Shown here piece by piece: positions 4,047-63,587 of a stretch of DNA of 64,000 bases; the stretch's first letter is position 1, and each line of letters begins with the position of its first letter. Below the pieces are notes generated by a model. That model was given only the letters and a program-made list of their open reading frames with translations, was not told where the DNA came from and did not search any database. The DNA comes from Chitinophagales bacterium. Lineage in GTDB: Bacteria; Bacteroidota; Bacteroidia; Chitinophagales; UBA10324. A program made the translations under genes and the position numbers. The DNA lies in NCBI GenBank assembly GCA_019694975.1, contig JAIBAY010000007.1, positions 1,283 to 65,282 on the forward strand. The letters are read 5' to 3'.

Positions 4047-6785
4047 TTATTCTTTAATCATCGGTAGGCTGGTCATCATTCTGCCCGGCATTATTATTTG
4101 AACCGTATAAACACCAGACGCAACAGCATGCAGGTCAACTTCTTCCATATTCATTCCACTGCTGCATGTTTTCGTCAGCGAGTATATCAGCCTCGACTGC
4201 ATATCCAGCAACCGGATGCTTACCGAACCCTGATGTTCATTATTGAATGAAATATGCAGGATCTCTGATACAGGATTGGGATAGAGAACCGCATCACTCT
4301 TCGCGCTCATGCTGTTCAATTCACTCATGCGTGCTGATGTGGTGAATGACAGTTTCTTTGAATATTTGCCTGTTGACTTGTCATCATTCGCAGTATCAAC
4401 CATGGCAACCTGCCATTCGTACGTTTTGCCGGCTGTCAGGTTGTTGACCGTCATGCTGCCGATGTTGCCATTTGTTTTCTTTTTGGTCCATGGCGGAGTG
4501 TCTTTCAGGCGATACCGCACAGTGTAATATTTCGCGCACGGTAAAGTATTCCATGTGAACTGAGCGCTGCTTGCCGTGATATTGGCGGTGGCTGTATTTT
4601 TCGGGCCCGGCCCTATCTCCGATTCTTTGCTCGCACCAAAACAACTGCCCGTTGCGCCATCAGCGAATGCGGTAGCTGTGTAGAGTCCGGAAGTGAGGTT
4701 AGAGAAAGTAACTGCACCACTGCCATTGGTTAGTGCAGGAATGTTGAATGGCAATCCAAATCTGTATAGCTGCACCATATACGGTCCATTGCCTCCGTCG
4801 CACTGATAAGTGATACTGCTGTTGTTGCAATTACTTCCTATATCAGGATTGGCCGTTATGGTTGTATTGCAATTCACCTGTGTAAACGAATCTGTCAGCG
4901 AATAGGTGAAGAATTCATTTGTACCGGTGGAAAATATTTTAATGTAATAATAAGCCGGCGTAAGTCCGTTAAGGTCTACCGTCAAGGTTCCGGTTTGATA
5001 ATAATTGTAATAGATGGCTGCGGCAGCAGTATCCTTATAGATGGCAATGGTGAAATACCGCTGACAATTGCAGGCAAGGCCATTTGCTTCCGTCATCCTG
5101 ATTCTTAAAAACCCGCTTCCTGTATAGTTGATTTTCCACCAGTCAGGCTGATCATACTGGCCGTCGTAATAGAAATTAATATGGCCGGTTACAGTACCGT
5201 ATGAAGGCATCGTCCTCGCCTGAGCAGCATAATTGTTTGGTTCCGCATCTGCTGCATAAGCATAAGTGGAGAGTGTATTGGAAATAGTGTAGGTAGTGAA
5301 TTCACCATTGTAATTGGTGCAATATACTTTTACAATATAAGTGCCTGCCTTCAGGCCATCCGTTACCAAGGTGTTACTGTTCAGCCAGTAGTTAACTACC
5401 TGAATAGGTGTTGCTCCATTGTTATCATAGAGAATTACCGACAGGTAGGAACCTCCTGTGTTGAGCAGCGTAATATCAAGTTTTCCATCTTCGGCAGTGG
5501 TAATGGAATACCAATCTGCCGTATCCCTTGTGAGATTGAAATAATAACCCACATGCCCGGTCAGTGAACCTCCCTGCGGTAAAGTAACCGCGTTTGTTTT
5601 GCTTCCATTAGGTTCTGCATCATTAGCACCTGTTGCACTTACCAGTGCGGCGTTGATTGTATAGGGAGCAAATGCACTATTGTAGTCGGTGCAATAGACC
5701 TTAAAATAATAAGTACCTGCAGCAAGTCCGTTGGTTGTAAGTGTTTGTGTCGAATTGTTATAGTTGAATCCATTTAATTGCTTCGTACCGTTGTTATCAA
5801 AAAGAAAGAGGGAGAGATACTGATTGTTAACGGAGGCCAGTGTCAGGTTCAGTTGCCCGTCTGCAGCTGTAGTTACTTTATACCAATCCATAGTGTCTCT
5901 TGCCACATTATAATAATATCCGGCGTGGCCCGTTTTGGTTTCTCCGATATTGATTGATAATGCTGCCGACGGACTGTTATTCGGTTCAATATCATTGGCA
6001 ACGGTTGGAGTTATCAGGGTATCTTTAATGATGTATGGAGCAAAATCGTCTGGGTTGGTACAATAAATTCTAAAGTAATACGTGCCGGCTGCAAGCCCAT
6101 TGGTATTAAGTGTCTGCGTGGAATTGTCGTAGTTGAACCCATTCAAAACTGTTGTGCCATTTTTATCATACAGGAAGAGAGAAAGATAATGCGCATTGCC
6201 CGAGCTCAAAGTGAGGGAAAGTTGTCCGTCACTATTGGTGGTTACTTTATACCAATCTGCAGTATCGCGCTTCGCGTTAAAGTAATAACCCACATGCCCG
6301 TTTAATGTACTGTTTTGCGCCAGGGTGATAGCCTGTACGCTTGAACCATTAGGTTCCAAATCGTTTGATTGTGATGGTACGGTGAGCAAATCCGAGATGG
6401 TATAAGATGGTTGTTCACCGATATTTGTAGCATACACTTTAACGTAGTAGGTTCCCTGCGCCAGCCCGTCTGTATTCTGCGCTGTAGTGCCATTCACATA
6501 GTTCACAATATAATTGAGCCCCGTTGTTCCATTGTTGTCATAAAGCTGGTAACTGAGATAAACGCCATTAGTGGATGTGAGTGTGAGGCTGATCATGCCG
6601 TCTGCATTGGTGCTGATTTTCCACCAGTCCACATCACCGCCCGGCGTCACAGCGCCTGTATTGTTTCCATTCAGTGCCAGTTTATTGGCTTTCGACTTTG
6701 TATCGTTCGGTTCTGTTTCGGTTCCCGCTGCAGTAAACCAAAGCAAAGAACACAAAACAATAGCGAGTAATTTATTTGTTTTCAT
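4047..6785 (-). CDS. secreted repeat protein: about 5 PPC/pre-peptidase-like beta-sandwich repeats, a fibronectin-III domain and a T9SS sorting domain
   Basis: Signal peptide MKTNKLLAIVLCSLLWFTAAG. The module EPN(D/G)...A..L......G....(Y/F)....D..DWYK(V/I)TT..DG.L.LTL...N....L.L(Y/F)D.NG is repeated. An FN3-like ITASSAQFTWN...YTVRYR is followed by LYPNPVSEILHISF. It is a paralogue of 45427..47793. Confidence 0.85.
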   Translation of the reverse strand: MKTNKLLAIVLCSLLWFTAAGTETEPNDTKSKANKLALNGNNTGAVTPGGDVDWWKISTNADGMISLTLTSTNGVYLSYQLYDNNGTTGLNYIVNYVNGTTAQNTDGLAQGTYYVKVYATNIGEQPSYTISDLLTVPSQSNDLEPNGSSVQAITLAQNSTLNGHVGYYFNAKRDTADWYKVTTNSDGQLSLTLSSGNAHYLSLFLYDKNGTTVLNGFNYDNSTQTLNTNGLAAGTYYFRIYCTNPDDFAPYIIKDTLITPTVANDIEPNNSPSAALSINIGETKTGHAGYYYNVARDTMDWYKVTTAADGQLNLTLASVNNQYLSLFLFDNNGTKQLNGFNYNNSTQTLTTNGLAAGTYYFKVYCTDYNSAFAPYTINAALVSATGANDAEPNGSKTNAVTLPQGGSLTGHVGYYFNLTRDTADWYSITTAEDGKLDITLLNTGGSYLSVILYDNNGATPIQVVNYWLNSNTLVTDGLKAGTYIVKVYCTNYNGEFTTYTISNTLSTYAYAADAEPNNYAAQARTMPSYGTVTGHINFYYDGQYDQPDWWKINYTGSGFLRIRMTEANGLACNCQRYFTIAIYKDTAAAAIYYNYYQTGTLTVDLNGLTPAYYYIKIFSTGTNEFFTYSLTDSFTQVNCNTTITANPDIGSNCNNSSITYQCDGGNGPYMVQLYRFGLPFNIPALTNGSGAVTFSNLTSGLYTATAFADGATGSCFGASKESEIGPGPKNTATANITASSAQFTWNTLPCAKYYTVRYRLKDTPPWTKKKTNGNIGSMTVNNLTAGKTYEWQVAMVDTANDDKSTGKYSKKLSFTTSARMSELNSMSAKSDAVLYPNPVSEILHISFNNEHQGSVSIRLLDMQSRLIYSLTKTCSSGMNMEEVDLHAVASGVYTVQIIMPGRMMTSLPMIKE

Positions 6786-7012
6786 AACCTTGTATTTAGT
6801 CAATACAAAATTATGTTTGAACTGACCGGTCAAAAAATGATCTGCATCAGTTTATCTTTTTTCAGGCGGGCGTTTCAACAACTGTGCCCGGAGAAAACCA
6901 TGATGTGATTCAAAGCGATATGCTGGAGGGTTTTTATTTATATAGCATCTCGTGCAACGGCTCGTTTTATTCATCATCTGAGAAGGTATAACGGTAGTAC
7001 GATATAATGTAA

Positions 7013-8385
7013 TTGCGATCGCGTGGAGCCTTCATGAGATGCTGAAATAAATTCAGCATGACGTGTGGCAGATTCAGCATGACGTGTGGCAGATTCAACA
7101 TGACGTGCGGCAAATTCAGATTCACGTGCAGCAAGTGCAGCATAGTATGCAGCAATAACGATCGCGTGGAGCCTTCATGAGATGCTGAAATAAATTCAGC
7201 ATGACGTGTGGCAGATTCAACGTGACGCACGACAAATTCAGCATGAAGTGCGGCAAATTCAGATTCACGTGCAACAAGTGCAGCATGGTTTGCAGCAATA
7301 GCGATCGCGTGGAGCTTTCATGAGATGCTGAAATAAATTCAGCATGACGGGTCGCAGATTCAACGTTACGCACAGTAAATTCAGCGTGATGCACAGCATA
7401 TTCAACATGACGTGTGGCAAATTCAGATTCACGTGCAACAAATGAAGCATGGTATGCAGCTATAGCGATCGCGTGGAGCCTTCATGAGATGCTGAAATAA
7501 ATTCAGCATGACGAGTGGCAGACTCAACGTTACGCACGGTAAATTCAGCATGACGTGCGGCAAATTCAGATTGGCGTGCAACAAGTGCAGCATGGTATGC
7601 AGCAACAGCGATCGCATGGAGCTTTCATGAGATGCTGAAATAAATTCAGCATGACGGGTCGCAGATTCAACGTTACGCACAGTAAATTCAGCGTGATGCA
7701 CAGCTAATTCAGTATGACGTGTGGTAAATTCAGATTGGCGTGCAGCAAGTGCAGCATAGTATGCAGCAATAACGATCGCGTGGAGCCTTCATGAGATGCT
7801 GAAATAAATTCAGCATGACGGGTCGCAGATTCAACGTTACGCACAGTAAATTCAGCGTGATGCACAGCAAATTCAGTATGACGTGTGGCAAATTCAGATT
7901 CGTGTGCAACAAGTGCAGCATGGTATGCAGCAATAGCGATCGCATGGAGCCTTCATGAGATGCTGAAATAAATTTAGCATGACGTGTGGCAGATTCAACG
8001 TTACGCACAGTAAATTCAGCGTGATGCACAGCATATTCAGTATGACGTGTGGCAAATTCAGATTCGTGTGCAACAAGTGCAGCATGGTTTGCAGCAATAG
8101 TGATCGCGTGGAGCCTTCATGAGATGCTGAAATAAATTCAGCATGACGGGTCGCATATTCAACGTTACGCACAGTAAATTCAGCGTGATGCACAGCAAAT
8201 TCAGCGTGATGCACAGCAAATTCAGCATGACGTATGGCAAATTCAGATTCACGTGCAACAAGTGCAGCATGGTATGCAGCAATAGCGATCGCATGGAGCC
8301 TTCATGAGATGCTGAAATAAATTCAGCATGACGGGTCGCAGATTCAACATGACGCACGGTAAATTCAGCATGACGTGTGGCAGAT
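7013..8385. repeat. hierarchical tandem repeat array: 21-bp subrepeats organised into 9 higher-order units of 143/164/185 bp
   Basis: The junction GCGATCGC(G/A)TGGAGC(C/T)TTCATGAGATGCTGAAATAAATTCAGCATGACG recurs. Its TGA falls at 7035, 7178, 7321, 7485, 7628, 7792, 7956, 8120 and 8305, giving spacings of 143, 143, 164, 143, 164, 164, 164 and 185, that is 143 + n x 21. Between junctions lie 21-mers such as AAATTCAGCATGACGTG(T/C)GGC. Confidence 0.92.
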
Positions 8386-8496: not shown

Positions 8497-9531
8497 TTAT
8501 GAAACTTCATCGCTGCAGCGGAGTTCCCATTGCCAGGCGGATCGCATCACCTCTTCCAAAGAACGGGATGGTTTCCAACCCAGCATTTTCTCTGCTTTCG
8601 TGATATCGGAATAGACTGCTATTGCATCACCTTCACGGCGGGGGCCAAGCCGGTATTTTAATGCAATGCCGGTAGCCTTTTCAAAGGCATGCACCATTTC
8701 CAAAACACTTACACCATTGCTTGTACCAAGGTTAATGATATCAAAAAAAGAAGGTGATTCCTGTTTTTTTCTTACCAGAAATTCAAGCGCCAGCACATGC
8801 GCATCTGCCACATCCATTACATGCGGATAATCACGGATACACGATCCATCCCGTGTAGGCAGGTCGCTTCCAAACACGACAAACTCCGGTTGTTTTCCAA
8901 TTGCGGTTTTCGTGATGGCAGGAACGATGTTCTGTGGCTTCTCTTCCATCGGCTCACCAAGCAGTGCAGATGCATGCGATCCCACCGGATTAAAATAGCG
9001 CAGCGCAAGGGCATAGCATGGGAATGCCTTCACAAAGTCTTCTATCATCATCTCGCCCCAGAATTTGGTTCTGCCGTAGGGTGATTCCTGCTTCACGACA
9101 GAGGTATCCTCCGTCACCGGCAGCCGTGCTATGTTTCCATACACTGAACTGGAGGAAGAAAAAATGAGATGCGGAATTTGGAATTGCCGCATACATTCCA
9201 TGATATGCACCTGTGAGAAAAGGTTGTTATGATAATACATCAGCGGATCAGCCACTGATTCACCCACCATTTTGTACGCGGCAAAGTGGATAATGCCTGC
9301 AATGTCTTTTTCCTGACTGAAGACGTTCGTCGTGACCTGCTGATCGCACAGATCCACTTCATAATTCCGGAAAGTTTTGCCGGTAATCTGTCTCACACGG
9401 TCGGGCACATAACTTCTGCCCCGTCGCATATTATCAATGCTGACCACATCAAACCCTTTGTTTAGCAGCGCCACAATAGTGTGCCCGCCGATGTAACCAC
9501 AGCCGCCTGTCACCAGAATTTTAATGCTCAT
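8497..9531 (-). CDS. galE: UDP-glucose 4-epimerase
   Basis: N-terminal Rossmann motif ILVTGGCGYIGGH, the SDR YxxxK region SPYGRTKFWGE, and full-length similarity to the GalE pattern. Confidence 0.9.
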   Translation of the reverse strand: MSIKILVTGGCGYIGGHTIVALLNKGFDVVSIDNMRRGRSYVPDRVRQITGKTFRNYEVDLCDQQVTTNVFSQEKDIAGIIHFAAYKMVGESVADPLMYYHNNLFSQVHIMECMRQFQIPHLIFSSSSSVYGNIARLPVTEDTSVVKQESPYGRTKFWGEMMIEDFVKAFPCYALALRYFNPVGSHASALLGEPMEEKPQNIVPAITKTAIGKQPEFVVFGSDLPTRDGSCIRDYPHVMDVADAHVLALEFLVRKKQESPSFFDIINLGTSNGVSVLEMVHAFEKATGIALKYRLGPRREGDAIAVYSDITKAEKMLGWKPSRSLEEVMRSAWQWELRCSDEVS

Positions 9532-9887
9532 GCTTCCTGTCTTTTGCCTTCAATGATACGGAGAAAATATATGGCATGAAATGATACGTCAACTCTTCAA
9601 AACAGATAATACTCCGCCGATGCTTGCAGGATGAAGCATTAATATGCAACCACTATCGATCAGTTAAATGCATGCGCTGCTTTGCTGGAGGAGAAGGTTT
9701 TACAATCAAAAAAAGAAAGAGTGGTGCAGGATGAGTGATATTTTTCCGCATATACCGGAATCTGAAAATGAAGCATCAATCGTGTAAGGTGCTAACAGGT
9801 AACATTAGTGGCATCACTAACAGCTTTTCCATAAATGGATCAAAGCGATTTGTCATACAGCTTAAGCATGCCATGATATCTGCTTCC

Positions 9888-10607
9888 TTATCTTTTCCGC
9901 AGCCATTCATAAAATGCCGGAAACATTTTACGCCAGCTGCTTTCAGTATGCGTGCCCTTTTCGCTGATGCTGACGACAACTTTGCAATGCATGTTTTTCC
10001 CGATGCTGTCGCTGACGGCTTCTACCAGTTCCACCATATTTTCGCCTTCATTTCTTCCGCCATAGAAATAGTAGCGCTGATGTTCATGGCCGTTGGGCGG
10101 CGTGGCATCAATCTGCGCCAGCAAATCCGGCACGAGCCAGAAGGAAGGAGAGATTACGCCTATCGAACCAAAAACTTTGGGATAATAAAGTCCCGCATAA
10201 AATGAAATCAGCCCGCCGAGTGAACTGCCGGCAATAGCCGTATTACCCGGCCCTGGCATAGTCCTGAAATTTTTATCGATGTATGGCTTCAGCACGGTAA
10301 CCAGAATATTCAGGTACACTCTTCCCAATCCAATGCCATGCTCCTCGGTGTTATTGGGATTATATTCATTGATGCGGTTTTCACCGCCATTGTCAATGCC
10401 AATCACTATGCCGGCAAAATTCACCGAATCAAGATATTCATCAATCTGCCATTCGCCGGAAAAGGATGTCTGCACATCAAAAAGATTCTGCCCGTCCTGC
10501 ATATATAACACCGGATATTTTTTTTCAGTAATGGCATAATCACCCGGCAGATAAACCCATATTCTCCTGTTGATATTAAGTTCAGTGATATAAAGTGACG
10601 TATACAT
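9888..10607 (-). CDS. alpha/beta-hydrolase, putative esterase family (esterase D / CE1-like)
   Basis: YPVLYMQDGQNLFD and the nucleophile elbow IAGSSLGGLISFY are present. The start is taken at MYTSLYITEL (ATG 10607) so the gene does not overlap the glgX stop at 10619. The ORF is open to 10682. Confidence 0.8.
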   Translation of the reverse strand: MYTSLYITELNINRRIWVYLPGDYAITEKKYPVLYMQDGQNLFDVQTSFSGEWQIDEYLDSVNFAGIVIGIDNGGENRINEYNPNNTEEHGIGLGRVYLNILVTVLKPYIDKNFRTMPGPGNTAIAGSSLGGLISFYAGLYYPKVFGSIGVISPSFWLVPDLLAQIDATPPNGHEHQRYYFYGGRNEGENMVELVEAVSDSIGKNMHCKVVVSISEKGTHTESSWRKMFPAFYEWLRKR

Positions 10608-10618
10608 AAAACGCTCAA

Positions 10619-12757
10619 TCAGGATGTTTTTACATTCCTCCTGGAAAACAAAATTACGATGGAATGCTGTTCCACACGACAAGTTTGCTGGTTATAGAAT
10701 GGCGCATCGTCCCATTCACAGATATCATTAGGAGAAGGCAGTGAAGTATCAATCCAGCGTCTCCATCCCTGCCCTGCTGTTTCATGTACCGGTGGAATCT
10801 CAAATTCAAGAGCTTCGTGGTAGGTATTAAACATATAGTGAATTTCAACCGATCCGCCGATGGACAAAGTTGTAACGGCAATGGAGTGCGAAGCATCGCT
10901 CCAGTCAGGCTGATGCAGTTTCACTCCATGCCAGGTTACCAGTGGCTTATCCAGCAACTCTTTCAGGCTGAGCTTGTATTTTTTTTGCGCGGAGTCGCGG
11001 TTGTTCCTCACATCATTCAGCATCTTCACAAAGCGGAGCACATCGGCATGCTTGTCCGGCAGGCGCCAGTCGAACCAGGTAAGTTCATTGTCGTGGCAGT
11101 ATGCATTGTTATTGCCGAATTGCGTCCTCCGCACTTCATCGCCCATCAGGATCATCGGAACACCCAGTGACAACAGGTTTATCGTAAGAAAATTTTTTAT
11201 CTGCCTGTTACGCAGCAATTCCACCTGCGGATCATCCGACGGACCTTCTGTGCCGCAGTTCCAGCTCAGATTATAGGTTGACCCATCCCTGCCTTGTTCT
11301 CCATTTGCTTCATTATGTTTCGTGTTGTAGCTCACTAGATCATTGAGTGTAAAGCCGTCATGGCAGGTAACGAAGTTGATGCTCTGTTCGGGGCCCCTGT
11401 CCTTTGGCAGGTAGATATCGGGGCTTCCAAGGAGCCGTGATGTGAGCCGCGGAATGGTTGCATTATCACCTCTCAGTGCTGAACGTACATCATCCCTGAA
11501 CTTCCCATTCCACTCCTTCCAGCTATCGCCGGTAAAAGTTCCTACCTGGTAGAGGCCGACAGCATCCCAAGCTTCCGCGATGAGTTTGACACCGGCGAGT
11601 ACAGGATCAGATTCAAGGTCCCAAAGCACGGGCGGATTCTCCAGCGGCATTCCGTTTTCATCCCTCGAGAGAATAGAAGCAAGATCGAAACGAAATCCAT
11701 CCACATGCATTTCTTCCACCCAGAAATGAATGGCATCAATAATCATACGCCGCACGATTGCATGATTTGCATTGAGTGTGTTGCCGGTGCCTGAATAGTT
11801 GGCATATTTTGATTTATCCTTGTCGAGGATATAATAAACACTGTTATCAATACAGCGAAAACTATAGGACGGTCCTTTCTCATCCACTTCCGCAGTATGA
11901 TTAAACACTACATCCAGGATCACTTCCAAACCTGCACGATGAAATGCTTTCACCATATCACGAAAATCATCCAATGCCTGCAACGGATCATCTCCGCCTG
12001 CATACGCCTGGTGCGGCGCGAAAAAACTCACCGGGCAATAACCCCAGTAATTCACTTTGCCGGGCGGGCAATCATCTTTGTCAAACTGAAAGACAGGGAG
12101 CAGTTCCACTGCGGTGATTCCCAAATCAACGAGGTATGGAATTTTTTCTATCAGCCCTTTATAGGTACCTCTTTTTCCGGCTGTAACTCCTGAACCGGGA
12201 TGTTTAGTGAATCCTGCCACATGCATCTCATAGATGATTGTTTGTGAGAATGGAAGTTCAAGTGGCTTGTCGCCTTCCCAGTCGTACCGTGACAGATCAG
12301 CCACAACGCTTTTCATGGATGGTACGCTCACCTTACCGCGTTTTTTACAGGCGGCGCGGCTGAACCCTTCCGGAACGGCTACCGCTTTGGCATACGGATC
12401 AAGTAATATTTTTTCACCATCAAACCGATGACCGTTGCCGGGATCAAACGGGCCATGGACCCTGTAACCATACAACTGTCCTGCCTTAATGCCATGCACA
12501 AACACATGCCAGTAGTGATAGGTTTTATGGTGCACGCTGTCGAGGTGAATTACCTGCGAAGGTTCCACATCATCCGCTTCGCGGAAAAACAATAACTCAA
12601 CTGCAAGGGCATTTTTTGAAAACAGGGAGAAGTTGGCGCCGCCCTCTGCCAGTGTGGCACCAATTGGATGCGATAGTCCTCTTTCGCAGGTAAACCCGCC
12701 AGCTATCTTCGCAGGCATCCCGTTCACATTTAATCTTTGCTCAGCTTCACGTTCCAT
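10619..12757 (-). CDS. glgX: glycogen debranching enzyme (GH13, GlgX type)
   Basis: N-terminal CBM48-like PIGATLAEGGANFSLFS, and GH13 catalytic regions VILDVVFNHT, VDGFRFDLAS, LIAEAWD and FVTCHDGFTLNDL. An alternative start at MPAKIAGG (12718) would remove the 28-nt overlap with glgP. Confidence 0.9.
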   Translation of the reverse strand: MEREAEQRLNVNGMPAKIAGGFTCERGLSHPIGATLAEGGANFSLFSKNALAVELLFFREADDVEPSQVIHLDSVHHKTYHYWHVFVHGIKAGQLYGYRVHGPFDPGNGHRFDGEKILLDPYAKAVAVPEGFSRAACKKRGKVSVPSMKSVVADLSRYDWEGDKPLELPFSQTIIYEMHVAGFTKHPGSGVTAGKRGTYKGLIEKIPYLVDLGITAVELLPVFQFDKDDCPPGKVNYWGYCPVSFFAPHQAYAGGDDPLQALDDFRDMVKAFHRAGLEVILDVVFNHTAEVDEKGPSYSFRCIDNSVYYILDKDKSKYANYSGTGNTLNANHAIVRRMIIDAIHFWVEEMHVDGFRFDLASILSRDENGMPLENPPVLWDLESDPVLAGVKLIAEAWDAVGLYQVGTFTGDSWKEWNGKFRDDVRSALRGDNATIPRLTSRLLGSPDIYLPKDRGPEQSINFVTCHDGFTLNDLVSYNTKHNEANGEQGRDGSTYNLSWNCGTEGPSDDPQVELLRNRQIKNFLTINLLSLGVPMILMGDEVRRTQFGNNNAYCHDNELTWFDWRLPDKHADVLRFVKMLNDVRNNRDSAQKKYKLSLKELLDKPLVTWHGVKLHQPDWSDASHSIAVTTLSIGGSVEIHYMFNTYHEALEFEIPPVHETAGQGWRRWIDTSLPSPNDICEWDDAPFYNQQTCRVEQHSIVILFSRRNVKTS

Positions 12758-27841: not shown

Positions 27842-28200
27842 ATGAAAACAAAACTAATAATAGTAGTAACCGGATTGCGGCAACCGGATTTTCGCTAAAT
27901 GACAAAGGTTATACCGGTACCTGCGAAGTGCCCTATCAGCACTATGAAACTGATTGGTGGGAATATATTCCTGCCCTCAATACCTGGACACAAAAAAGCG
28001 ATCTCGCAGGATCAGGACGCTATATGGCAGTTGCTTTTGCTATCGAAAACAAAGGTTATCTCGCGACAGGTATTACTCATGAAGGAATTTTACTTAAAGA
28101 TTACTGGTAATACATTCCAGCATCTGTTTCCACCTGTGCTGTTCCCGTCTCACTTAATACCGGTTGAGGTCTCAGCGAAGGCGGGCAATTAAAATCACTT
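27842..28200 (+). pseudogene. degraded N-terminal remnant of a Kelch-like-repeat T9SS cargo gene (paralogue of 37520..39919)
   Basis: MKTKLIIVVTGL runs into a stop. A shifted frame then reads GFSLNDKGYTGT...DWWEYIPALNTWTQKSDLAGSGRYMAVAFAIENKGYLATG, matching the repeats of the 37520 protein. A further stop is followed by an FN3-start-like CAVPVSLNT..VSAKAGN. Confidence 0.55.
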
Positions 28201-28303
28201 CACTGTCGCACCGCACCAATTTAATTAAAAACACAAACGGTTGAAGTTCCGACTGAACGTCCGCTCTTGCCAAGGTCATGTTACCGGATGCCCTTCTTCT
28301 TCC

Positions 28304-29380
28304 TTACATGAAGGAATCTATTTTGTTTCGACTTACTTCTTGCAGAAAGGGACTGTAAGTTGTTGTAATCAAATTTGTCAAAGCAGGTTCAGATTTTAAT
28401 AGTTCAATCATACGATACCTATCAATTAAAACAACATCATAAATGTCAAGTGGGTTAAACCATGCCAAGGATTCGTCTCTCAAATGTCGAGGAACAAAAT
28501 GATAAGTTAGGTAACCATTTTCAAATTGAACGTATTTGCTCCATTTAGATTCATGAGCATCAAATTCTTTAGTTATCCAATCAGTGCCACACGCACATTG
28601 GCCAAAAAATGTCGGTTGTGAAAATTGGTTGTCTGTGAAGTTGTAAACACCAACCCAGTCTAGACCACCATCGCCAACATTATGAAGTCCTGAATTCTCT
28701 TCTGTAAAATTTGTCCTTGGTGCCACATGAAGCAAATTGCACAATTCTAAAACTTTGTCATAGAATTTTCCCGAAATAGACGGAGTTAAATATTCTCCTG
28801 CTCCTGAACCAAAGAAAATATTTTGAGTATTATTTGGAGTCAATTTCTTAAACGCTGGTCCACATAATTCTTCAAAATGATGCCCAAGTCTGTTAAGTCC
28901 ACTTTTTGTCGCAAGTCTTAATAGGGATGAACAAAGTAATATCAAATAAAGTGTTTGACTAATTGTCAATTCTACTTTTATAGTTATGTCGTTATTTGAA
29001 ACAACAAATGGATAATCATCTCCAAAGTGCTTTTGACGAGATTTCAATAATGTGAAATAGTAATTTATTTTAGATGAAATCTTATCTCTCAAAGCAGGAT
29101 TGTCGCTTGTTTCATCAAAAACCTCATCTTCAATTAATTCGTCTGGAGAAGCAATAGAAGTGACCAGTTCTATTATTTCATCTTCGTCCGCTACATCTTC
29201 AATTGCAACTAGTGGATTATTTGAACTCTCATCTAAAAGTCTGTCCGCAATTTGTTGCTCGCTGATTTTCCCTTCCTGTGAAATGAAACAGAAGAATTCA
29301 ATATGGTCGGCCCAATGATTAGGTTCGGAATTTAGCTTGGGCAAACTAAGGTCTTGGTATTTTAAGTATGCCATAGCCAT
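28304..29380 (-). CDS. uncharacterised protein with an acidic N-terminal third and a C-terminal Mrr-like (PD-(D/E)xK-type) motif; second gene of the ParB-like cassette
   Basis: The 358-aa ORF starts inside TAATG, overlapping the upstream stop. An acidic run reads IEDVADEDEIIELVTSIASPDELIEDEVFDETSD. The C-terminal HNVGDGGLDWVGV...FFGQCACGTDWITK resembles the GDGGID...QxK nuclease core. Confidence 0.8.
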   Translation of the reverse strand: MAMAYLKYQDLSLPKLNSEPNHWADHIEFFCFISQEGKISEQQIADRLLDESSNNPLVAIEDVADEDEIIELVTSIASPDELIEDEVFDETSDNPALRDKISSKINYYFTLLKSRQKHFGDDYPFVVSNNDITIKVELTISQTLYLILLCSSLLRLATKSGLNRLGHHFEELCGPAFKKLTPNNTQNIFFGSGAGEYLTPSISGKFYDKVLELCNLLHVAPRTNFTEENSGLHNVGDGGLDWVGVYNFTDNQFSQPTFFGQCACGTDWITKEFDAHESKWSKYVQFENGYLTYHFVPRHLRDESLAWFNPLDIYDVVLIDRYRMIELLKSEPALTNLITTTYSPFLQEVSRNKIDSFM

Positions 29381-30477
29381 TAAATATTGTCTTTCTCTCT
29401 AATTTTTTTTGTAATCGTCCGACTTATGAGTTCAGCAGAATCAATTATTTCATCTGCGACTTTCTTGTCGTTTTTATCTGGGTTGGAACTTCTGTGAATA
29501 ATCTTTTGAGCTTCAACTAAATTTTGCAAGGCTTTTGTCAAATACAATCTAATATTTTCATCGGCTAAATCTGTTAACTCTGCTGCTTCTTTTAATGTTT
29601 TTTCTCCACTAATAAATGATTCTCTAGCTTCAATATTTTGAATTACTTTGTTTAAGACTCTAAGATTTCGATTATCTCCAATTCTTGTTTTACCGTTTGA
29701 TAATTTCTCGTAAAGCCAATGAGTTACTTCTTTTAATCTTTCTTGATTGATATCCGAAAATGGAGAATCTGACTCCATATTGATGCCCATAAATTCAGCT
29801 AATGCCGTATGCATTGTAATTGCATCGGTAATTAAAGATAAGTCAAAATTTTCTTCATCAAGTTCAGGAATATTGTAATATTTTCTGCTTTGAATTATTT
29901 CAAATGCTTCATATCCTGTGAGTAACCTTCTTACATAAGGTGCTTTACTTCCGATTTCTTTTGCTAATTCTTTATAAACGCTAGGGCCACCTGACTTTTT
30001 TTGTTGATAAAGATGGTTTAGATACCTTGCTTTAGAAATTACCGGCCATTGTTTCACGCCAGTCACATGTCGGAATGCAAGGTAATTTTCTACTTCCTTC
30101 CGTTCACTTACTACATAAACCCAAAGTTTATGTGGAATATGATTTTTCTCTTTTGCATCGTTGGATAAACTTTCAACTGCTTTGGGGCTAATTATTGCTA
30201 ACCCAGGGTTGGTAAGAAGTTTTATTGCTGCTAATCTTCGATTCCCTTCAATGACAATATATGTTTTGTTGTCAGGTATAACGATTATTGGCTCGCCTGA
30301 AAAAAAGCCATTCTCAGAAATTGATGCCATTAAGTCAATTAAAGTAGCATCAGACAGCATCCAATTTAACACTTCTTTATCAGAAGCCCCTTTTAAACGC
30401 TCTGGAAGTCGTGGATTACTATGGTCAAGCTTGAGATTTTCTATTTCAACCTCAACAAAATTTGTTTCAGATTTCAT
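29380..30477 (-). CDS. ParB/Srx N-terminal domain (ParB-like nuclease fold) protein; first gene of the cassette
   Basis: EVEIENLKLDHSNPRL ... PIIVIPDNKTYIVIEGNRRLAAIKLL is the ParBc arginine box. The start is taken at MKSETNF (30477); the ORF is open to 30537. The remaining ~250 aa are not assignable. Confidence 0.85.
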   Translation of the reverse strand: MKSETNFVEVEIENLKLDHSNPRLPERLKGASDKEVLNWMLSDATLIDLMASISENGFFSGEPIIVIPDNKTYIVIEGNRRLAAIKLLTNPGLAIISPKAVESLSNDAKEKNHIPHKLWVYVVSERKEVENYLAFRHVTGVKQWPVISKARYLNHLYQQKKSGGPSVYKELAKEIGSKAPYVRRLLTGYEAFEIIQSRKYYNIPELDEENFDLSLITDAITMHTALAEFMGINMESDSPFSDINQERLKEVTHWLYEKLSNGKTRIGDNRNLRVLNKVIQNIEARESFISGEKTLKEAAELTDLADENIRLYLTKALQNLVEAQKIIHRSSNPDKNDKKVADEIIDSAELISRTITKKIREKDNI

Positions 30478-30574
30478 TGCATAAATTAAATGAATCGTTT
30501 GCAAATATACTTGAATTAGACATTGAAATATTTTCAAAAAGTCTTTGAATAATTATACTGTCGATTGATATTAG

Positions 30575-31124
30575 CACGGTCGTTATAGAGTTTCCGGTAA
30601 CAACCTGATCACTGCATCTGCAGCGAAATTCAACTGGGCTGATGTAAACCGCGCAGCCGGCTACGTGATTCGCTACAAAGTTTCCGGAGAAAAAACTGGG
30701 TACTGAAGACGGCCACCACAAGTACAAAAAAGATTGGCGGGTTGCAGCCAGCAACGGAATATACCTGGAGTGTCAGAACATTTTGCGCCGTGACGCCGCC
30801 GCCGGTTACTTCGAAATGGTCGCCCAACCAAGTATTCACAACACCTGCGCTAAGATTGGAAACACCGGTTTCCGCTTCACTCGATGTCTACCCCAATCCG
30901 TTCCAACAAACCGCCATGATCACTTATACTACAGCAAGTGATGCACACGTGCAGATTACTTTGTACGACCTCAGCGGCAAGTTGATGAAGATGTTGCTTA
31001 ATGAAAATGCTTCCTCCGGCTGCACACGCTTTCACTCAGCAGTGAAGGACTTCATCGGGGAATTTATCTCCTGAAGTTTCAGGTCAATGATGTGTTGATG
31101 GTGAAGAAAGTGGTGATGGAATAG
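30575..31124 (+). pseudogene. C-terminal remnant (FN3 plus T9SS sorting domain) of a cargo gene, with at least two frameshifts
   Basis: ITASAAKFNWADVNRAAGYVIRYKVSGEK is followed by a shift at the A6 run (30690..30695), then NWVLKTATTSTKKIGGLQPATEYTWSVRTFC...LDVYPNPFQQTAMITY...LYDLSGK. After a second shift near 31010-31025 it reads GLHTLSLSSEGLHRGIYLLKFQVNDVLMVKKVVME*. Confidence 0.6.
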
Positions 31125-60037: not shown

Positions 60038-62077
60038 ATGAAATCACTTCCTCTTTTATTCCTGCTCCTTGTTTCAGCCGCTAAGTGCTTTGGGCAGTAC
60101 CAGTTTATCTCTCCAAAGCCCGGAGCAAAAAGTCTCCCTGTGCAACACAACATCATCATCCGGCAGGGAAATGTTTTGCTGCATGCCGATTCGCAATTGT
60201 TTTCCATCACAGGCATTAAGAGCGGAAAGGTCCCTTTCAGGATGATTATCTGCGACGATAAAAAAACCCTCAACCTCAACCCTTTGCTTCCCTTTGCCAC
60301 CAATGATACCATTACCGTGATTGCAGCCGAAGGTGCCGTTACCGTGGAAAACGCAGGAGCCATTCCTGTTTTGCAATTCACCTTTACAACCTCCAGCCAA
60401 AAGGCACTGGAAGAGCGGAGCGCAAATAGTCTTTGGGAAAATGAATGGGATGACGTAAATGAAATCGTGCAGAAAGATGCCGCAACCACCGATGATGATG
60501 ACAGCCTTAAACTGTTTACCATTACCACCAACCTGCAGCCTTCTCCGGGCAGTATCTTCTTCGATTGCAAGCCTGCAACCGTTCTACCGGGCGACAGTGG
60601 CCTGCATGTGATAGGCATCATCCAAAACAATGGTGATTCCGTTTATCAGCAATCATTTACCGGCTTGCCTTATGATTTTCATTTGGGCGACAATGGTTAT
60701 TTTATCACTTACCGGAGTGATCGTGGCTGTTACCATATGCTTGATTCCAACTTTCATGTGGTGGATTCTTTTGCCATTGTCAATGGATTTGCCATTGATC
60801 CTCATGACTGCCGGGTAACCGCTGATGGCTATGCATTTATCATCGGTGCGGAAGATCAGCCGGTAGGCGATGAAATGAGCCATGTTTACCGGGGTTCCGT
60901 AATCCAGGGATTCGACCCCCATCACAACATAATTTTCGAGTGGCGGAGCCTGGATTATGTTGATGTCAGCGAAGGCACGCACCTGAATGAGGATGCCAGC
61001 ACGCTCGATTATGTGCACACCAATTCGATCGAGATGGATTTTGATGGTAATATGATCACCTCCAACCGCAATCTCGACCAGGTAAATAAGATTGATATCA
61101 ATACCGGTGAATTCATCTGGCGAATGGGTGGTGTGAAGAATGAATTTACCTTCGTTAATGATCCCCAGAAATTTTCGCGCCAGCACGATTGCCGCCGCTT
61201 GCCCAATGGCAACATCACCCTGTATGACAATGGAAATTTCCATCCGCTGTCGCATTCTGCCGCGAAGGAATACAAACTGGATGAAGTGAATAAAACAGCT
61301 ACCCTGGTGTGGAGCTATAAACGTCCCATGGTGGATGGCATCATTCCCTACTACCTTGCAATGGGAAATGTGCAGCGGCTGGCGAATGGAAATACATTTA
61401 TCAACTGGGGCAAACGATACAACGCCAACCTGCCCAGCATGACAGAAGTTGACAGTGCCGGCAACATTGTTTGGGAAATGAAGCTGTCAGCCGATAAGCA
61501 ATACATCGCTTACCGGGCGCATAAATACGACTGGAATCCCTGTGCGCGCCCTTCTGCCGATTCCATGAAGGTGCGGGATATTACAGGCCACAGTGCAAAG
61601 CTCTCCTGGGAATGCGTGGCCAATGCCAACCAGTTGTATGAAGTGCAATACAAAATTAAGGAGGCGACCACCTGGGCAACACAGACCGTTCTTGCATCTG
61701 CTGATTACCTGGTGCTTTCGTTCCTTCAACCTTCCACTACATACGACTGGCGTGTGAAATCATGGTGCGACACCGTGGCAAATACCGCTTCCGGGTTGAG
61801 CGAAACGAAATCTTTCACTACCGCTTCGGATGCTGACAATACCGTATTGCAGCTTTATCCGAATCCTGCACAAGACGAAGTGATCATTCAATCACCGGGA
61901 ATGGAAACGGTGCAGGTTTTTAATATGCAGGGGCAGTTAATGAAGCAAGTTAACAACGCTCAAGGTGGCACATCAGCGATGGTGCTTTCGATCGCCGCTA
62001 TACCATCCGGGTTATATCTTGTAGTAGCAGGCAATCATGATTACAGGGTGGCGGGTATGCTTTCTGTTGTGAAGTGA
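60038..62077 (+). CDS. arylsulfotransferase (ASST) family beta-propeller protein with FN3 and T9SS sorting domain
   Basis: LDYVHTNSIEMDFDGNMITSNRNLDQVNKID..TGEFIWRMGG...FSRQHDCRRLPNGNITLYDNGN matches the ASST pattern. An FN3 (ITGHSAKLSWE...YEVQYK) follows, and the tail reads LYPNPAQDEVIIQS. Confidence 0.8.
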   Translation: MKSLPLLFLLLVSAAKCFGQYQFISPKPGAKSLPVQHNIIIRQGNVLLHADSQLFSITGIKSGKVPFRMIICDDKKTLNLNPLLPFATNDTITVIAAEGAVTVENAGAIPVLQFTFTTSSQKALEERSANSLWENEWDDVNEIVQKDAATTDDDDSLKLFTITTNLQPSPGSIFFDCKPATVLPGDSGLHVIGIIQNNGDSVYQQSFTGLPYDFHLGDNGYFITYRSDRGCYHMLDSNFHVVDSFAIVNGFAIDPHDCRVTADGYAFIIGAEDQPVGDEMSHVYRGSVIQGFDPHHNIIFEWRSLDYVDVSEGTHLNEDASTLDYVHTNSIEMDFDGNMITSNRNLDQVNKIDINTGEFIWRMGGVKNEFTFVNDPQKFSRQHDCRRLPNGNITLYDNGNFHPLSHSAAKEYKLDEVNKTATLVWSYKRPMVDGIIPYYLAMGNVQRLANGNTFINWGKRYNANLPSMTEVDSAGNIVWEMKLSADKQYIAYRAHKYDWNPCARPSADSMKVRDITGHSAKLSWECVANANQLYEVQYKIKEATTWATQTVLASADYLVLSFLQPSTTYDWRVKSWCDTVANTASGLSETKSFTTASDADNTVLQLYPNPAQDEVIIQSPGMETVQVFNMQGQLMKQVNNAQGGTSAMVLSIAAIPSGLYLVVAGNHDYRVAGMLSVVK

Positions 62078-62279: not shown

Positions 62280-63587
62280 TTATAATAACCGCTTTCCCTT
62301 CCTTGAATTACAACTCCTACACATAAGTGCAGCATTACTTAAAACACTTTTACCTCCTAATGCATAAGGTTTAATATGATCTATTGTAAAATTATCCCAG
62401 GTCAACTTCTCACCACATGATTTGCAATTCTTCGCTAATTCACTATTCCAAATTAACCTTCTTTGTTCGGTGTTGAATCCGCGTTTCTCATCTTTCCTTT
62501 CGAAGATGCCATTAAATAACTGTAAAAGAACCTGCGCTCTTCGATTTCTGGTAGTCGAACTATCGCTGTCCCCGCGTGTAGTAAATAGATAAGCTGCAAA
62601 TAATTGTTGGTCTGGTTTTGCCCCTTTTGCTTTTGAAATTTGAGTTCTGAGTTCGTCGACCCCGTTTGACATCCATTCCAGCAATTTCTGCGCTTGCCAA
62701 TTCCGATTTTTAACTGTTAAAATCATCTTGTCGTTGTTCAGTTGCCACACCATCATGAAAATTGAATACAATTCTGCGGAATTTCTAAACCGGGTTGAAC
62801 GAATATTTGGAAAGAGCCTTTTAACAAGATTCAAGGTGGTGACAAACTCTCTACGGCATCTCTTTAATGACCGGTCATCAATAGTTTTACCACTGATAAT
62901 CCTATCAAGAGCTGTTTTCTTATTCATTAATTGCTTTGTATGAAATGATGCCAATAATTCACAGATCAGCTCAATGTGCTTCATGCGTGATAAAAGGCCT
63001 GCCGATAACACCCTGTTTTCAAGAAAATATTTGTAATATCTGTTACCTAACTGCCCTGCAACTTTTAAAAACTGACTACTATAATACCGGGCATGCCTTT
63101 TTTCCTGGCCTGTAAGCCGCTTGCCAGTAGAATTAATCCTTACAAATAAATCAATTATATCAGTAAGGTCACCGCTGACTTCTACAGTTTGTAATTTATA
63201 ACCGGTAATTTTATGCTCTCTCCTGGATCTTTTAAGCTGCTGCCAATCCCATAATCTATAATTTTCCTCATCACTGAAGCTATATTTAACCTGAAACCAA
63301 TCTCTTTTAAACTGACGAATCCCAAGAAACATCAATATCGATTCAATTCTTTGTTTACCATCTAAAACATCATACTTTAACCTCCCTTTGTCATCCGCAC
63401 TTTTATAAAGAAAAATAGATGGCACCGGATAGTTTTGCAACAATGATTGAATCAATTTCTTTCGATCGTTAAGCGACCACACTGATTGCCTTTGAAAACC
63501 AGGTTCTAGGTTTAACCTTCCTTGATTAAATAGTGAAACAAAATCTTGAACATCTTTGCTTCCATAATCAAAATCCAATGTCTTCAT
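62280..63587 (-). CDS. DUF262 (GmrS/ParB-like) N-terminal domain fused to a C-terminal HNH endonuclease; GmrSD-like type IV restriction candidate
   Basis: N-terminal LEPGFQRQSVW...PVPSIFLY...YDVLDGKQRIESI gives the DUF262 FQR and DGQQR-type boxes. C-terminal CKSCGEKLTWDNFTIDHIKPYALGG...NAALMCRSCNSRKG gives the HNH with flanking Cys pairs. Confidence 0.85.
   Translation of the reverse strand: MKTLDFDYGSKDVQDFVSLFNQGRLNLEPGFQRQSVWSLNDRKKLIQSLLQNYPVPSIFLYKSADDKGRLKYDVLDGKQRIESILMFLGIRQFKRDWFQVKYSFSDEENYRLWDWQQLKRSRREHKITGYKLQTVEVSGDLTDIIDLFVRINSTGKRLTGQEKRHARYYSSQFLKVAGQLGNRYYKYFLENRVLSAGLLSRMKHIELICELLASFHTKQLMNKKTALDRIISGKTIDDRSLKRCRREFVTTLNLVKRLFPNIRSTRFRNSAELYSIFMMVWQLNNDKMILTVKNRNWQAQKLLEWMSNGVDELRTQISKAKGAKPDQQLFAAYLFTTRGDSDSSTTRNRRAQVLLQLFNGIFERKDEKRGFNTEQRRLIWNSELAKNCKSCGEKLTWDNFTIDHIKPYALGGKSVLSNAALMCRSCNSRKGKRLL

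Follow-up and report, generated by a model that had tools for sequence, protein, structure and literature searches.

A translationally coupled ParB/KorB-like and putative Mrr-like gene pair of a Chitinophagales bacterium: a candidate restriction-type defence module from a large unnamed family

At positions 28,304–30,477 of a 64,000-nucleotide stretch of the genome of a Chitinophagales bacterium (Bacteroidota; positions 1,283–65,282 of contig JAIBAY010000007.1, assembly GCA_019694975.1; hereafter, the window) lies an AT-rich cassette of two minus-strand genes, denoted here A and B. An initial annotation, made from the letters alone, described these as a gene for a ParB/sulfiredoxin (Srx)-fold protein translationally coupled to a gene for an unassignable protein with an Mrr-like core, and put the pair forward as a candidate undescribed defence module. 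The computational checks suggested with that annotation came out in its favour, and none of the outcomes named there as refuting was observed. The present analysis supports the proposal computationally, the defence function being what we infer from the sequences, and adds a wider setting: the cassette appears to be a methyltransferase-less offshoot of a larger family whose members are usually restriction-modification-like. On balance, the cassette is probably a restriction-type defence module of two proteins that is self-contained, was acquired horizontally and belongs to a large family without a name. That A and B make up a restriction or defence system of a known sort, with a ParB-fold sensor and a nuclease effector, in a form that has so far gone unnamed, is computationally well supported.

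The evidence that carries this reading comes from the strict association of A and B homologues across bacterial phyla, from the predicted architectures of the two proteins, from the cytosine methyltransferases that adjoin many members of the family and from the signs that the ~2.3-kb A+B unit moves by itself. The unit, delimited at 28264–30600, contains 34.2% GC compared to 46.3% in the rest of the window, and none of the 286 same-sized windows elsewhere in the stretch is as GC-poor (their minimum is 39.9%), in agreement with the original description of the cassette as compositionally foreign. The pair is more AT-rich than its flanks also in 46 of the 53 loci that were collected from other genomes.

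Gene pair and predicted proteins

The two open reading frames (ORFs) and their TAATG junction were found in the sequence as first described: A runs from 30477 to 29380 (365 aa, MKSETNF...) and B from 29380 to 28304 (358 aa). The ATG at 30477 agrees with the N-termini of A homologues. For B, homology supports the second ATG (29374–29372), located 5 nt past the stop codon of A, as the likely start, because all close homologues begin with MAYLKY, the database copy of the window protein is 356 aa long and the same 5-nt spacing is found in relatives. The two genes are tightly coupled whichever start of B holds. The features of the pair are as follows.

29380–30477, minus strand: gene A, encoding a 365-aa ParB/KorB/Noc-like protein with a predicted ParB N-domain, a helix-turn-helix (HTH) DNA-binding domain and a helical C-terminal region (from the ORF, homologues and model)
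30235–30246, minus strand: box II arginine patch G78-N79-R80-R81 of A, a putative nucleotide-phosphate-binding motif, invariant in 41 homologues and aligned with GERR of the solved ParB structure 4umk
29887–29985, minus strand: predicted HTH of A (helices 165–175 and 179–197; conserved AKEIGSK..YVRR), from the secondary structure of the model, the conserved columns A172, I175, G176 and Y181, and Foldseek alignments that run through the ParB/KorB DNA-binding domain
29378–29382, minus strand: TAATG junction, in which the TAA stop of A and an in-frame ATG of B share base 29380
28304–29380, minus strand: gene B, encoding 358 aa (356 aa from the ATG at 29374), with a helical, winged-helix-like N-terminal part that includes an acidic loop, followed by a divergent, putative Mrr-like PD-(D/E)xK core
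28496–28906, minus strand: predicted nuclease core of B, residues 159–295 (helix with F169-E170, three strands, helix, strand)
28658–28675, minus strand: G236-D-G-G-L-D241 of B, the likely equivalent of the Mrr GDGGID metal-binding motif, aligned with GDGGVD of MspJI and GDGGID of Mrr_cat
28568–28600, minus strand: Q261-C-A-C-G...W268...K271 of B, corresponding to QxK with Lys replaced by Ala; K271 is the candidate relocated lysine

Judging from its structural model, A is a ParB/KorB-type protein with an extra helical C-terminus rather than a protein of the DUF262/GmrS type. The search for A yielded 491 homologues with conserved N-termini and, in an alignment of 41 of these, D18, N21-P22-R23 and E77-G78-N79-R80-R81-L82 are invariant. 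The EGNRRL segment aligns with AGERRL of solved ParB, and G78-N-R-R-L-A-A with GERRLRA of 4umk; box II of A thus has Asn where ParB has Glu, the residue that is mutated in the structure entry of Myxococcus xanthus ParB E93A. The AlphaFold model of A, built with the 41 homologues as input, has a predicted local distance difference test (pLDDT) score of 89.9. Foldseek searches with this model matched ParB, KorB, Noc and sulfiredoxin, all with the probability of 1.00, and the KorB, ParB and Noc matches extend over 250–300 columns that encompass the N-domain and the HTH (E 4e-5 to 1e-3). The ParB/Srx box that had been proposed for A is therefore borne out by both the invariant GNRR and the fold, and the remainder of the protein, originally considered unassignable, is assignable in part, through the HTH domain.

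Comparison of A with sequence profiles gave scores below the respective cut-offs for Pfam ParB_N (PF02195; 17.5 bits against 26.3) and NCBIfam TIGR00180 (parB_part; 32.5 against 58.45); PF02195 is nonetheless precomputed for the protein cluster of A and for many A homologues, and several homologue records are annotated as ‘ParB/RepB/Spo0J family partition protein’. There is also a weak match to GmrSD_N (E 0.011; 16 bits against a cut-off of 33 bits). Among the PADLOC models, those of PD-Lambda-5_A match residues 1–160 of A (E 2e-27), with only the first 140–185 of ~470 model positions covered. For PDC-M38, a candidate on which we found no literature, A matches positions ~60–330 of the 715-position PADLOC A model, and B matches no PADLOC model.

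Protein B of the window has no match in Pfam, PADLOC, NCBIfam or among PDB sequences, and scans of 42 close and 43 distant family members, as well as of B sub-domains, against Pfam, PADLOC and NCBIfam produced nothing. The family itself is large: an exhaustive profile search retrieved 2,783 representative clusters (at 50% identity) with E ≤ 1e-3, 656 of them with E ≤ 1e-30. Across more than 50 members, F169-E170, D237, D241 (within GDGGLD), Q261 and D320-R321-x-R323 are invariant, and C262, C264, W268 and K271 are nearly so. In the model of B (pLDDT 90.5; predicted template modelling score 0.90), the secondary structure elements assigned by DSSP (helices 159–180 and 270–273; strands 186–189, 242–245, 257–262 and 291–295) follow the order of the PD-(D/E)xK core, namely the helix with E170, a strand, a strand just past D241, a strand ending with Q261, the helix with K271 and a final strand. 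The profile search of PDB with the B family gave the catalytic segment of MspJI as the sole match (E 0.45), in which SGDGGVD...GQAKC is aligned with sGDgGLD...gQCaCg. Comparison with the genuine Mrr_cat family alignment using hhalign was marginal (E 0.031, probability 1.6%), the alignment being colinear over GDGGxD, Qx(K), the next strand and the C-terminal LID motif. The Mrr-like core that had been suspected in B is thus consistent with both the motifs and the order of structural elements, GDGGLD and QCACG...W..K being invariant or nearly so.

It had been observed already that Ala occupies the position of B where Lys is expected, and this holds: Q261 and A263 align with Q and K of the Mrr QAK, so that A263 corresponds to the catalytic Lys of Mrr and MspJI. 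Among 50 members of the B family, position 263 is occupied by Ala, Gly, Ser or Thr and K271 is present, with a single exception (L038; loci are numbered here with the prefix L), where Q-C-K-C is accompanied by the change of K271 to Leu. Because of this reciprocal change, a single natural swap, K271 is probably the relocated catalytic lysine of B, and the site is probably active rather than dead.

The acidic N-terminal third of B, which also had been pointed out, is real (residues 50–115 include 18 D/E and 4 K/R) and is not clade-specific; as a marker of the methyltransferase-less clade it was rejected, given that similar loops are present in methyltransferase-linked members. Cys262 and Cys264 are unlikely to be essential metal ligands, considering that Ser, Thr or Ala is found at these positions in several members.

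Linkage of the pair and association with DNA modification genes

We fetched 53 loci encoding relatives of B from species-representative genomes. In all 51 loci with sufficient upstream DNA, an A homologue is located directly upstream of B, on the same strand, with the two genes abutting or overlapping; the loci with linked A and B come from Bacteroidota, Riflebacteria, Acidobacteriota, Actinomycetota, Chloroflexota, Armatimonadota, Pseudomonadota, Campylobacterota and Bacillota. The pairwise identities of A and B are correlated (rho 0.82). Given this strict linkage and parallel divergence, A and B are obligate partners that are inherited as one unit, which answers in the affirmative the question, raised with the initial annotation, of whether homologues of B co-occur with a ParB-fold gene. 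In one locus (L026, Cellulomonas endophytica), two divergent A-B pairs are arranged in tandem (6204–8179 and 8857–11095), without a methyltransferase in the fetched 21 kb; this may reflect duplication or stacking of two specificities.

A C5 cytosine methyltransferase gene (PF00145) adjoins A-B in 30 of the 53 loci according to the clustering of neighbour genes, often 0–14 nt after B and otherwise upstream or convergent, and a vsr gene is present in about 11 of the 53. All 28 full-length linked methyltransferases retain the catalytic PC and ENV motifs and thus look active; for this reason, we rejected the possibility that the neighbouring methyltransferases are inactive, as has been proposed for MspJI. 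Over deep branches, the divergence of the methyltransferase does not track that of A or B (rho about -0.12; Mantel test not significant), yet sister lineages share the same motif-IV methyltransferase subtype, which suggests that the methyltransferase is inherited together with the pair among close lineages and exchanged over longer evolutionary times.

No recurrent third partner besides the C5 methyltransferase and Vsr was detected in 52 loci. In three gammaproteobacterial loci (L044, L054 and L061, from Alteromonadales, Marinomonas and Thalassotalea), the phosphorothioate modification genes dndC, dndD and dndE, in convergent orientation to the pair, take the place of a C5 methyltransferase, which suggests that the nuclease pair is able to team up with more than one type of DNA-modification module. 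In a metagenome-assembled genome (MAG) of Helicobacter cetorum, the pair comes after a 1,633-aa protein with a HerA domain. In the Candidatus Thiovulum MAG (L050, 7158–11721), A and B are flanked on the same strand by a GmrSD gene, which overlaps the start of A, and by a gene for a HARE-HTH + Mrr_cat protein that follows B; these four consecutive genes make up a tight group of Type IV-like restriction genes.

The family is represented also in phages. Between the portal gene and gpA, P2-like phages carry a trio made up of a ParB-like gene, a member of the B family and a gene for a C5 methyltransferase (L064–L066); these phages are Wphi (gp98-gp96-mth, positions 96–3266 of L064), 12474III and a P2 variant. 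This position is the defence hotspot next to the P2 portal gene described by Vassallo et al. (PMC9519451). The Wphi trio was identified in 140 of 5,426 complete Escherichia coli genomes, including that of E. coli W, with the B protein labelled ‘hypothetical protein’ by PGAP; E. coli W is called restriction-minus in its genome paper (PMC3032704). Using strict search patterns, the scan of viral contigs returned one locus only. We found no paper on this A-B pair or on the function of Wphi orf96/orf98.

The makeup of the pair also bears on the possibility that it functions as a toxin-antitoxin or abortive-infection module, in which a nuclease toxin B would be held in check by an autoregulating HTH partner A and freed upon infection or loss of the cassette. 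The genes are translationally coupled and autonomous, the HTH protein comes first, the pair is maintained as a lone insert where the methyltransferase is missing, HipBA, HigB and HepT modules are found among the neighbours, and PD-λ-5 has been described as restriction-modification + abortive infection (RM+Abi) (PMC9519451). However, both proteins are about 360 aa long (365 and 358), which is large for a type II pair, and the family-wide links to m5C (5-methylcytosine) methyltransferases, Vsr and Dnd point to sensing of the state of DNA. Furthermore, A possesses a full ParB nucleotide-switch domain, beyond a repressor fold, and is more conserved than B (mean identity among homologues 0.34 and 0.28, respectively), whereas antitoxins usually evolve faster than toxins. 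We consider such a module unlikely.

The methyltransferase-less clade of the window

In the tree reconstructed from combined A and B, the deep branches are methyltransferase-linked, and the window belongs to a nested clade from several Bacteroidota orders and Riflebacteria. Neither a C5 methyltransferase nor Vsr was detected within ±10 kb of the pair in this clade (13 or more distinct loci from two phyla) or in the 64-kb window. L007, the closest relative that carries a methyltransferase, shares its methyltransferase subtype with the loci in which this gene is operonic with B, which points to the loss of the methyltransferase in the window lineage. The L007 locus additionally contains, between the C5 methyltransferase and Vsr genes and downstream of A-B, a 317-aa ORF without a Pfam match (10117–11070, plus strand); this could be a separate conventional restriction endonuclease, which would make the allegiance of the methyltransferase in this locus ambiguous.

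The insertion sites of the window clade are unrelated: beside HipBA, inside a polysaccharide cluster, between gdh and holB, or next to UbiD, BipA, lipase or outer-membrane protein genes. The DNA homology between the window and its relatives is confined to 28264–30600. Both genes are subject to strong purifying selection (pN 0.09–0.12 against pS 0.65–0.72, with dS saturated). Taken as they stand, these sequence data suggest that the window clade is a functional mobile unit made of A+B alone.

In the window, the cassette interrupts a decayed plus-strand gene of a surface protein with Kelch and fibronectin type III (FN3) domains and a type IX secretion system (T9SS) sorting domain; this gene carries stops and frameshifts, and the breakpoints are placed to about ±100 bp only. 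An intact paralogue at 60038–62077 matches 30742–31020 (tblastn, E 8e-7). The flanks of the unit and the remnants of the interrupted gene are as follows.

30478–30600, minus strand: 5′ flank of the unit, probable promoter region; the DNA homology with L012 reaches 30600
28264–28303, minus strand: 3′ flank common to close relatives, with which the transferred unit ends; in blastn, the homology to L016, L012 and L001 stops at 28264–28294
27843–28165, plus strand: left remnant of the decayed surface-protein gene; Kelch-like ...DYWEYIPA..., then the start of FN3, CAVPVSLNTG (from translations)
30575–31074, plus strand: right remnant of the same gene; a frameshifted FN3 segment and a T9SS C-terminal sorting domain (from translations and tblastn)

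The 5′ flank contains a Bacteroidota-type TAnnTTTG motif (30502–30509), which is short and not enriched in the window and is taken as a lead only. Scans of the unit for sigma-70 promoters and terminators are uninformative for this organism, and no minus-strand terminator-like site was found in the 3′ flank.

The absence of a linked methyltransferase from this clade could be explained differently, if A+B were a conventional modification-blocked restriction enzyme that cuts unmethylated sites, with the chromosome protected by a methyltransferase encoded elsewhere, for example, a conserved orphan enzyme. This explanation is compatible with the physical linkage of an active C5 methyltransferase to most of the family, with the methyltransferase subtype shared by sister lineages, with the identity of the invariant residues in both clades and with the view of the host genome, which covers 64 kb only. 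Against it, the methyltransferase is missing around the pair at unrelated sites in two phyla, the unit of DNA homology comprises A+B only, a restriction enzyme without its methyltransferase is normally lethal to a naive host, and the linked methyltransferases do not co-diverge with A or B over deep branches. In our estimate, this explanation is improbable. A methyltransferase that is linked to the endonuclease and co-evolves with it, as in classical Type II restriction-modification, is absent from the window and its clade; that of the wider family adjoins the pair, does not co-diverge over deep branches and is shared only between sister lineages.

A lack of any defence role, with the pair being a ParB-family segregation, regulation or repair factor with an accessory protein, or else an inert restriction-modification remnant, appears highly improbable. 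Several A records are annotated as partition proteins, the window copy is located among ordinary genes and some homologues are broken, with B split by frameshifts or insertions in L016, L024, L059 and L063 (in the latter, the fragments of B are 2.4 kb apart). Such occasional decay of family members is typical of dispensable defence genes. Neither ParA nor any other recurrent partition partner was identified among 128 neighbouring genes; the pair is chromosomal, patchy in distribution and AT-rich relative to its hosts; its relatives reside in a defence hotspot of prophages and have methyltransferase and Vsr genes linked to them; the motifs of the nuclease type do not vary; and the strong purifying selection rules out a remnant.

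Proposed mode of action and relation to known systems

Under the restriction-type reading that we favour, A would bind DNA through its ParB/KorB-like N-domain and HTH, and a nucleotide-dependent switch in A, with cytidine triphosphate (CTP) or another nucleoside triphosphate (NTP) as the probable ligand, would recruit or license B. The latter would be a divergent Mrr-like PD-(D/E)xK endonuclease that cuts DNA with an active site formed by E170, D241, Q261 and the relocated K271. In the ancestral and most common form of the family, the adjacent active C5 methyltransferase, often together with Vsr, would provide the ‘self’ mark, as in restriction-modification. The window clade would be a derived form in which the methyltransferase is gone and A+B travel by themselves, even from one phylum to another; because it spreads in this manner, the pair must be intrinsically safe for a naive host, and it most likely attacks only an invader-specific feature of DNA, as Type IV (modification-dependent) enzymes do. 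For A-B, then, we infer nucleotide binding, contact between the two proteins, DNA cleavage, a defence phenotype and the mode of self/non-self discrimination.

Several observations weigh against this scenario. For every member of the family, it is built on sequences and models. Both clades have the same invariant residues and domain layout, with no sequence sign of a switch from modification-blocked to modification-dependent action, and a methyltransferase may be encoded elsewhere in the host genome, beyond the 64-kb window. The defence-island setting that the initial annotation anticipated is found among relatives, in the P2 hotspot or beside GmrSD, Mrr, Dnd and toxin-antitoxin genes, but not in the window clade, the loci of which are mostly surrounded by housekeeping genes. 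No convincing terminal inverted repeats or target-site duplication were found at the cassette. The insertion site was not seen empty or in another allelic form, the cassette being identical in every contig that shares the flanking gene; L072 had appeared to differ only through gene calling. Statistical support for the relationship between B and Mrr is weak (E 0.45 in hmmsearch and 0.031 in hhalign), and Foldseek searches of PDB and BFVD with the confident model of B produced no match with E < 0.1 and no nuclease match. The canonical catalytic lysine is missing in B, the proposed relocation being based on conservation and one natural swap. Finally, given the Asn in place of Glu in box II, nucleotide hydrolysis by A, if any, may differ from that by ParB.

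More tentatively, the family might constitute an unrecognised class of restriction systems, in which a ParB/KorB-type nucleotide-switch DNA clamp licenses an Mrr-derived nuclease with a moved lysine and which comes in interchangeable flavours, m5C methyltransferase-linked, Dnd-linked and modification-free, the window clade being the stand-alone, Type IV-like form. In such a class, the clamp would replace a helicase, an AAA+ GTPase or a methyltransferase subunit as the finder or scanner of DNA.

The initial annotation stated that no named two-gene system has this composition, and we came to the same result: no name for the A-B pair was found in PADLOC (2023 library) or in the literature, and no named system matches both proteins. 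The B family, with ~2,800 clusters, has no Pfam, PADLOC or NCBIfam model and is labelled ‘hypothetical protein’ by PGAP, and yet always occurs with a ParB-like protein. If the pair is indeed a restriction or defence system, B would be a new effector partner for the ParB-fold sensors known from GmrSD, SspE, Menshen and PD-λ-5; the pair would be the first link of the CTP-switch ParB/KorB architecture with DNA restriction; and B would show that the catalytic lysine of an Mrr-type nuclease can be relocated in nature. Comparison of the Wphi trio of E. coli W with the methyltransferase-less window clade could show how a restriction module becomes methyltransferase-independent.

The best structural matches of A are ParB/Spo0J, Noc and KorB, the architecture of which, a CTP-binding N-domain followed by an HTH, is predicted for A as well, together with the arginine motif of box II. 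Unlike the ParB proteins that function in partition or as clamps, A has no ParA partner and no plasmid or origin context, contains Asn in box II, has a different C-terminal region and is coupled to a nuclease-like gene. A ParABS partition system was rejected, with no ParA/Soj neighbour in 52 loci and with insertion sites that are chromosomal and scattered.

Among the defence systems, PD-λ-5, discovered in E. coli ECOR7 and experimentally validated, with broad protection (Vassallo et al. 2022), is listed as ‘ParB/HEPN, methyltransferase’ in the supplement of that study (PMC9519451). It resembles the A-B family in the homologous ParB N-domain and in the logic of a ParB-fold module combined with a nuclease effector and a DNA methyltransferase; moreover, PD-λ-5 and the phage relatives of A-B share the P2 hotspot beside the portal gene. 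In PD-λ-5, however, ParB is fused to a HEPN RNase (about 440–590 aa), whereas here the effector is a separate, putative Mrr-like DNase-type protein that is not modelled by PADLOC, A has its own HTH domain and helical tail, and the window cassette lacks a methyltransferase. Membership of the pair in PD-λ-5 was accordingly rejected: the match covers the ParB-N part only, HEPN is absent, the 64-kb window lacks a C5 methyltransferase and the ORFs on either side of the cassette are unrelated.

For the split of the family into forms with and without a methyltransferase, there is a precedent in LlaJI, which is methyltransferase-linked and cuts unmodified DNA, and the homologous McrBC, which has no methyltransferase and is modification-dependent (PMC12707154). 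These systems and A-B, the latter known from sequences alone, would have in common an NTP-dependent DNA-binding subunit and a PD-(D/E)xK-type nuclease, along with the same split. The resemblance would be functional only, in the absence of homology: McrB is an AAA+ GTPase, whereas A has a ParB/Srx fold, and B is not McrC.

MspJI was mistaken for a conventional enzyme on account of the methyltransferase next to it, and both modification-blocked and modification-dependent enzymes can have Mrr-like cores (PMC3874153). B is similar to Mrr and MspJI in the order of the motifs, FE...GDGGxD...Qx(K), and in having a DNA-binding-like N-terminal part followed by a C-terminal nuclease, and many family members, like MspJI, adjoin a C5 methyltransferase. 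The differences are that B has Ala, Gly or Ser in place of the lysine of Mrr, with K271 located eight residues downstream, and a gap of ~70 residues between E170 and D241 compared to ~32 in Mrr; that it has no match to Pfam Mrr_cat; that it always occurs with a ParB-like partner; and that the linked methyltransferases look active, unlike the presumably inactive neighbour of MspJI.

GmrSD, BrxU and SspE join a nucleotide-binding sensor of the ParB superfamily to a DNA nuclease and in this way restrict marked DNA (PMC12065111). Unlike A-B, they combine DUF262 with an HNH nuclease, whereas A would represent the canonical ParB/KorB branch with an HTH and B is Mrr-like, the two being separate polypeptides. 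Membership in the GmrSD/DUF262-DUF1524 group was rejected, with GmrSD_N below the cut-off, no HNH domain and B not being DUF1524. The window does encode a candidate of the latter kind, unrelated to the A-B pair: the gene at 62280–63587 (minus strand), within a second AT-rich stretch at 62–64 kb (about 37–39% GC), codes for a 435-aa protein with GmrSD_N (DUF262) and HNH domains (Pfam E 1e-22 and 4e-12), a candidate GmrSD-like Type IV restriction enzyme.

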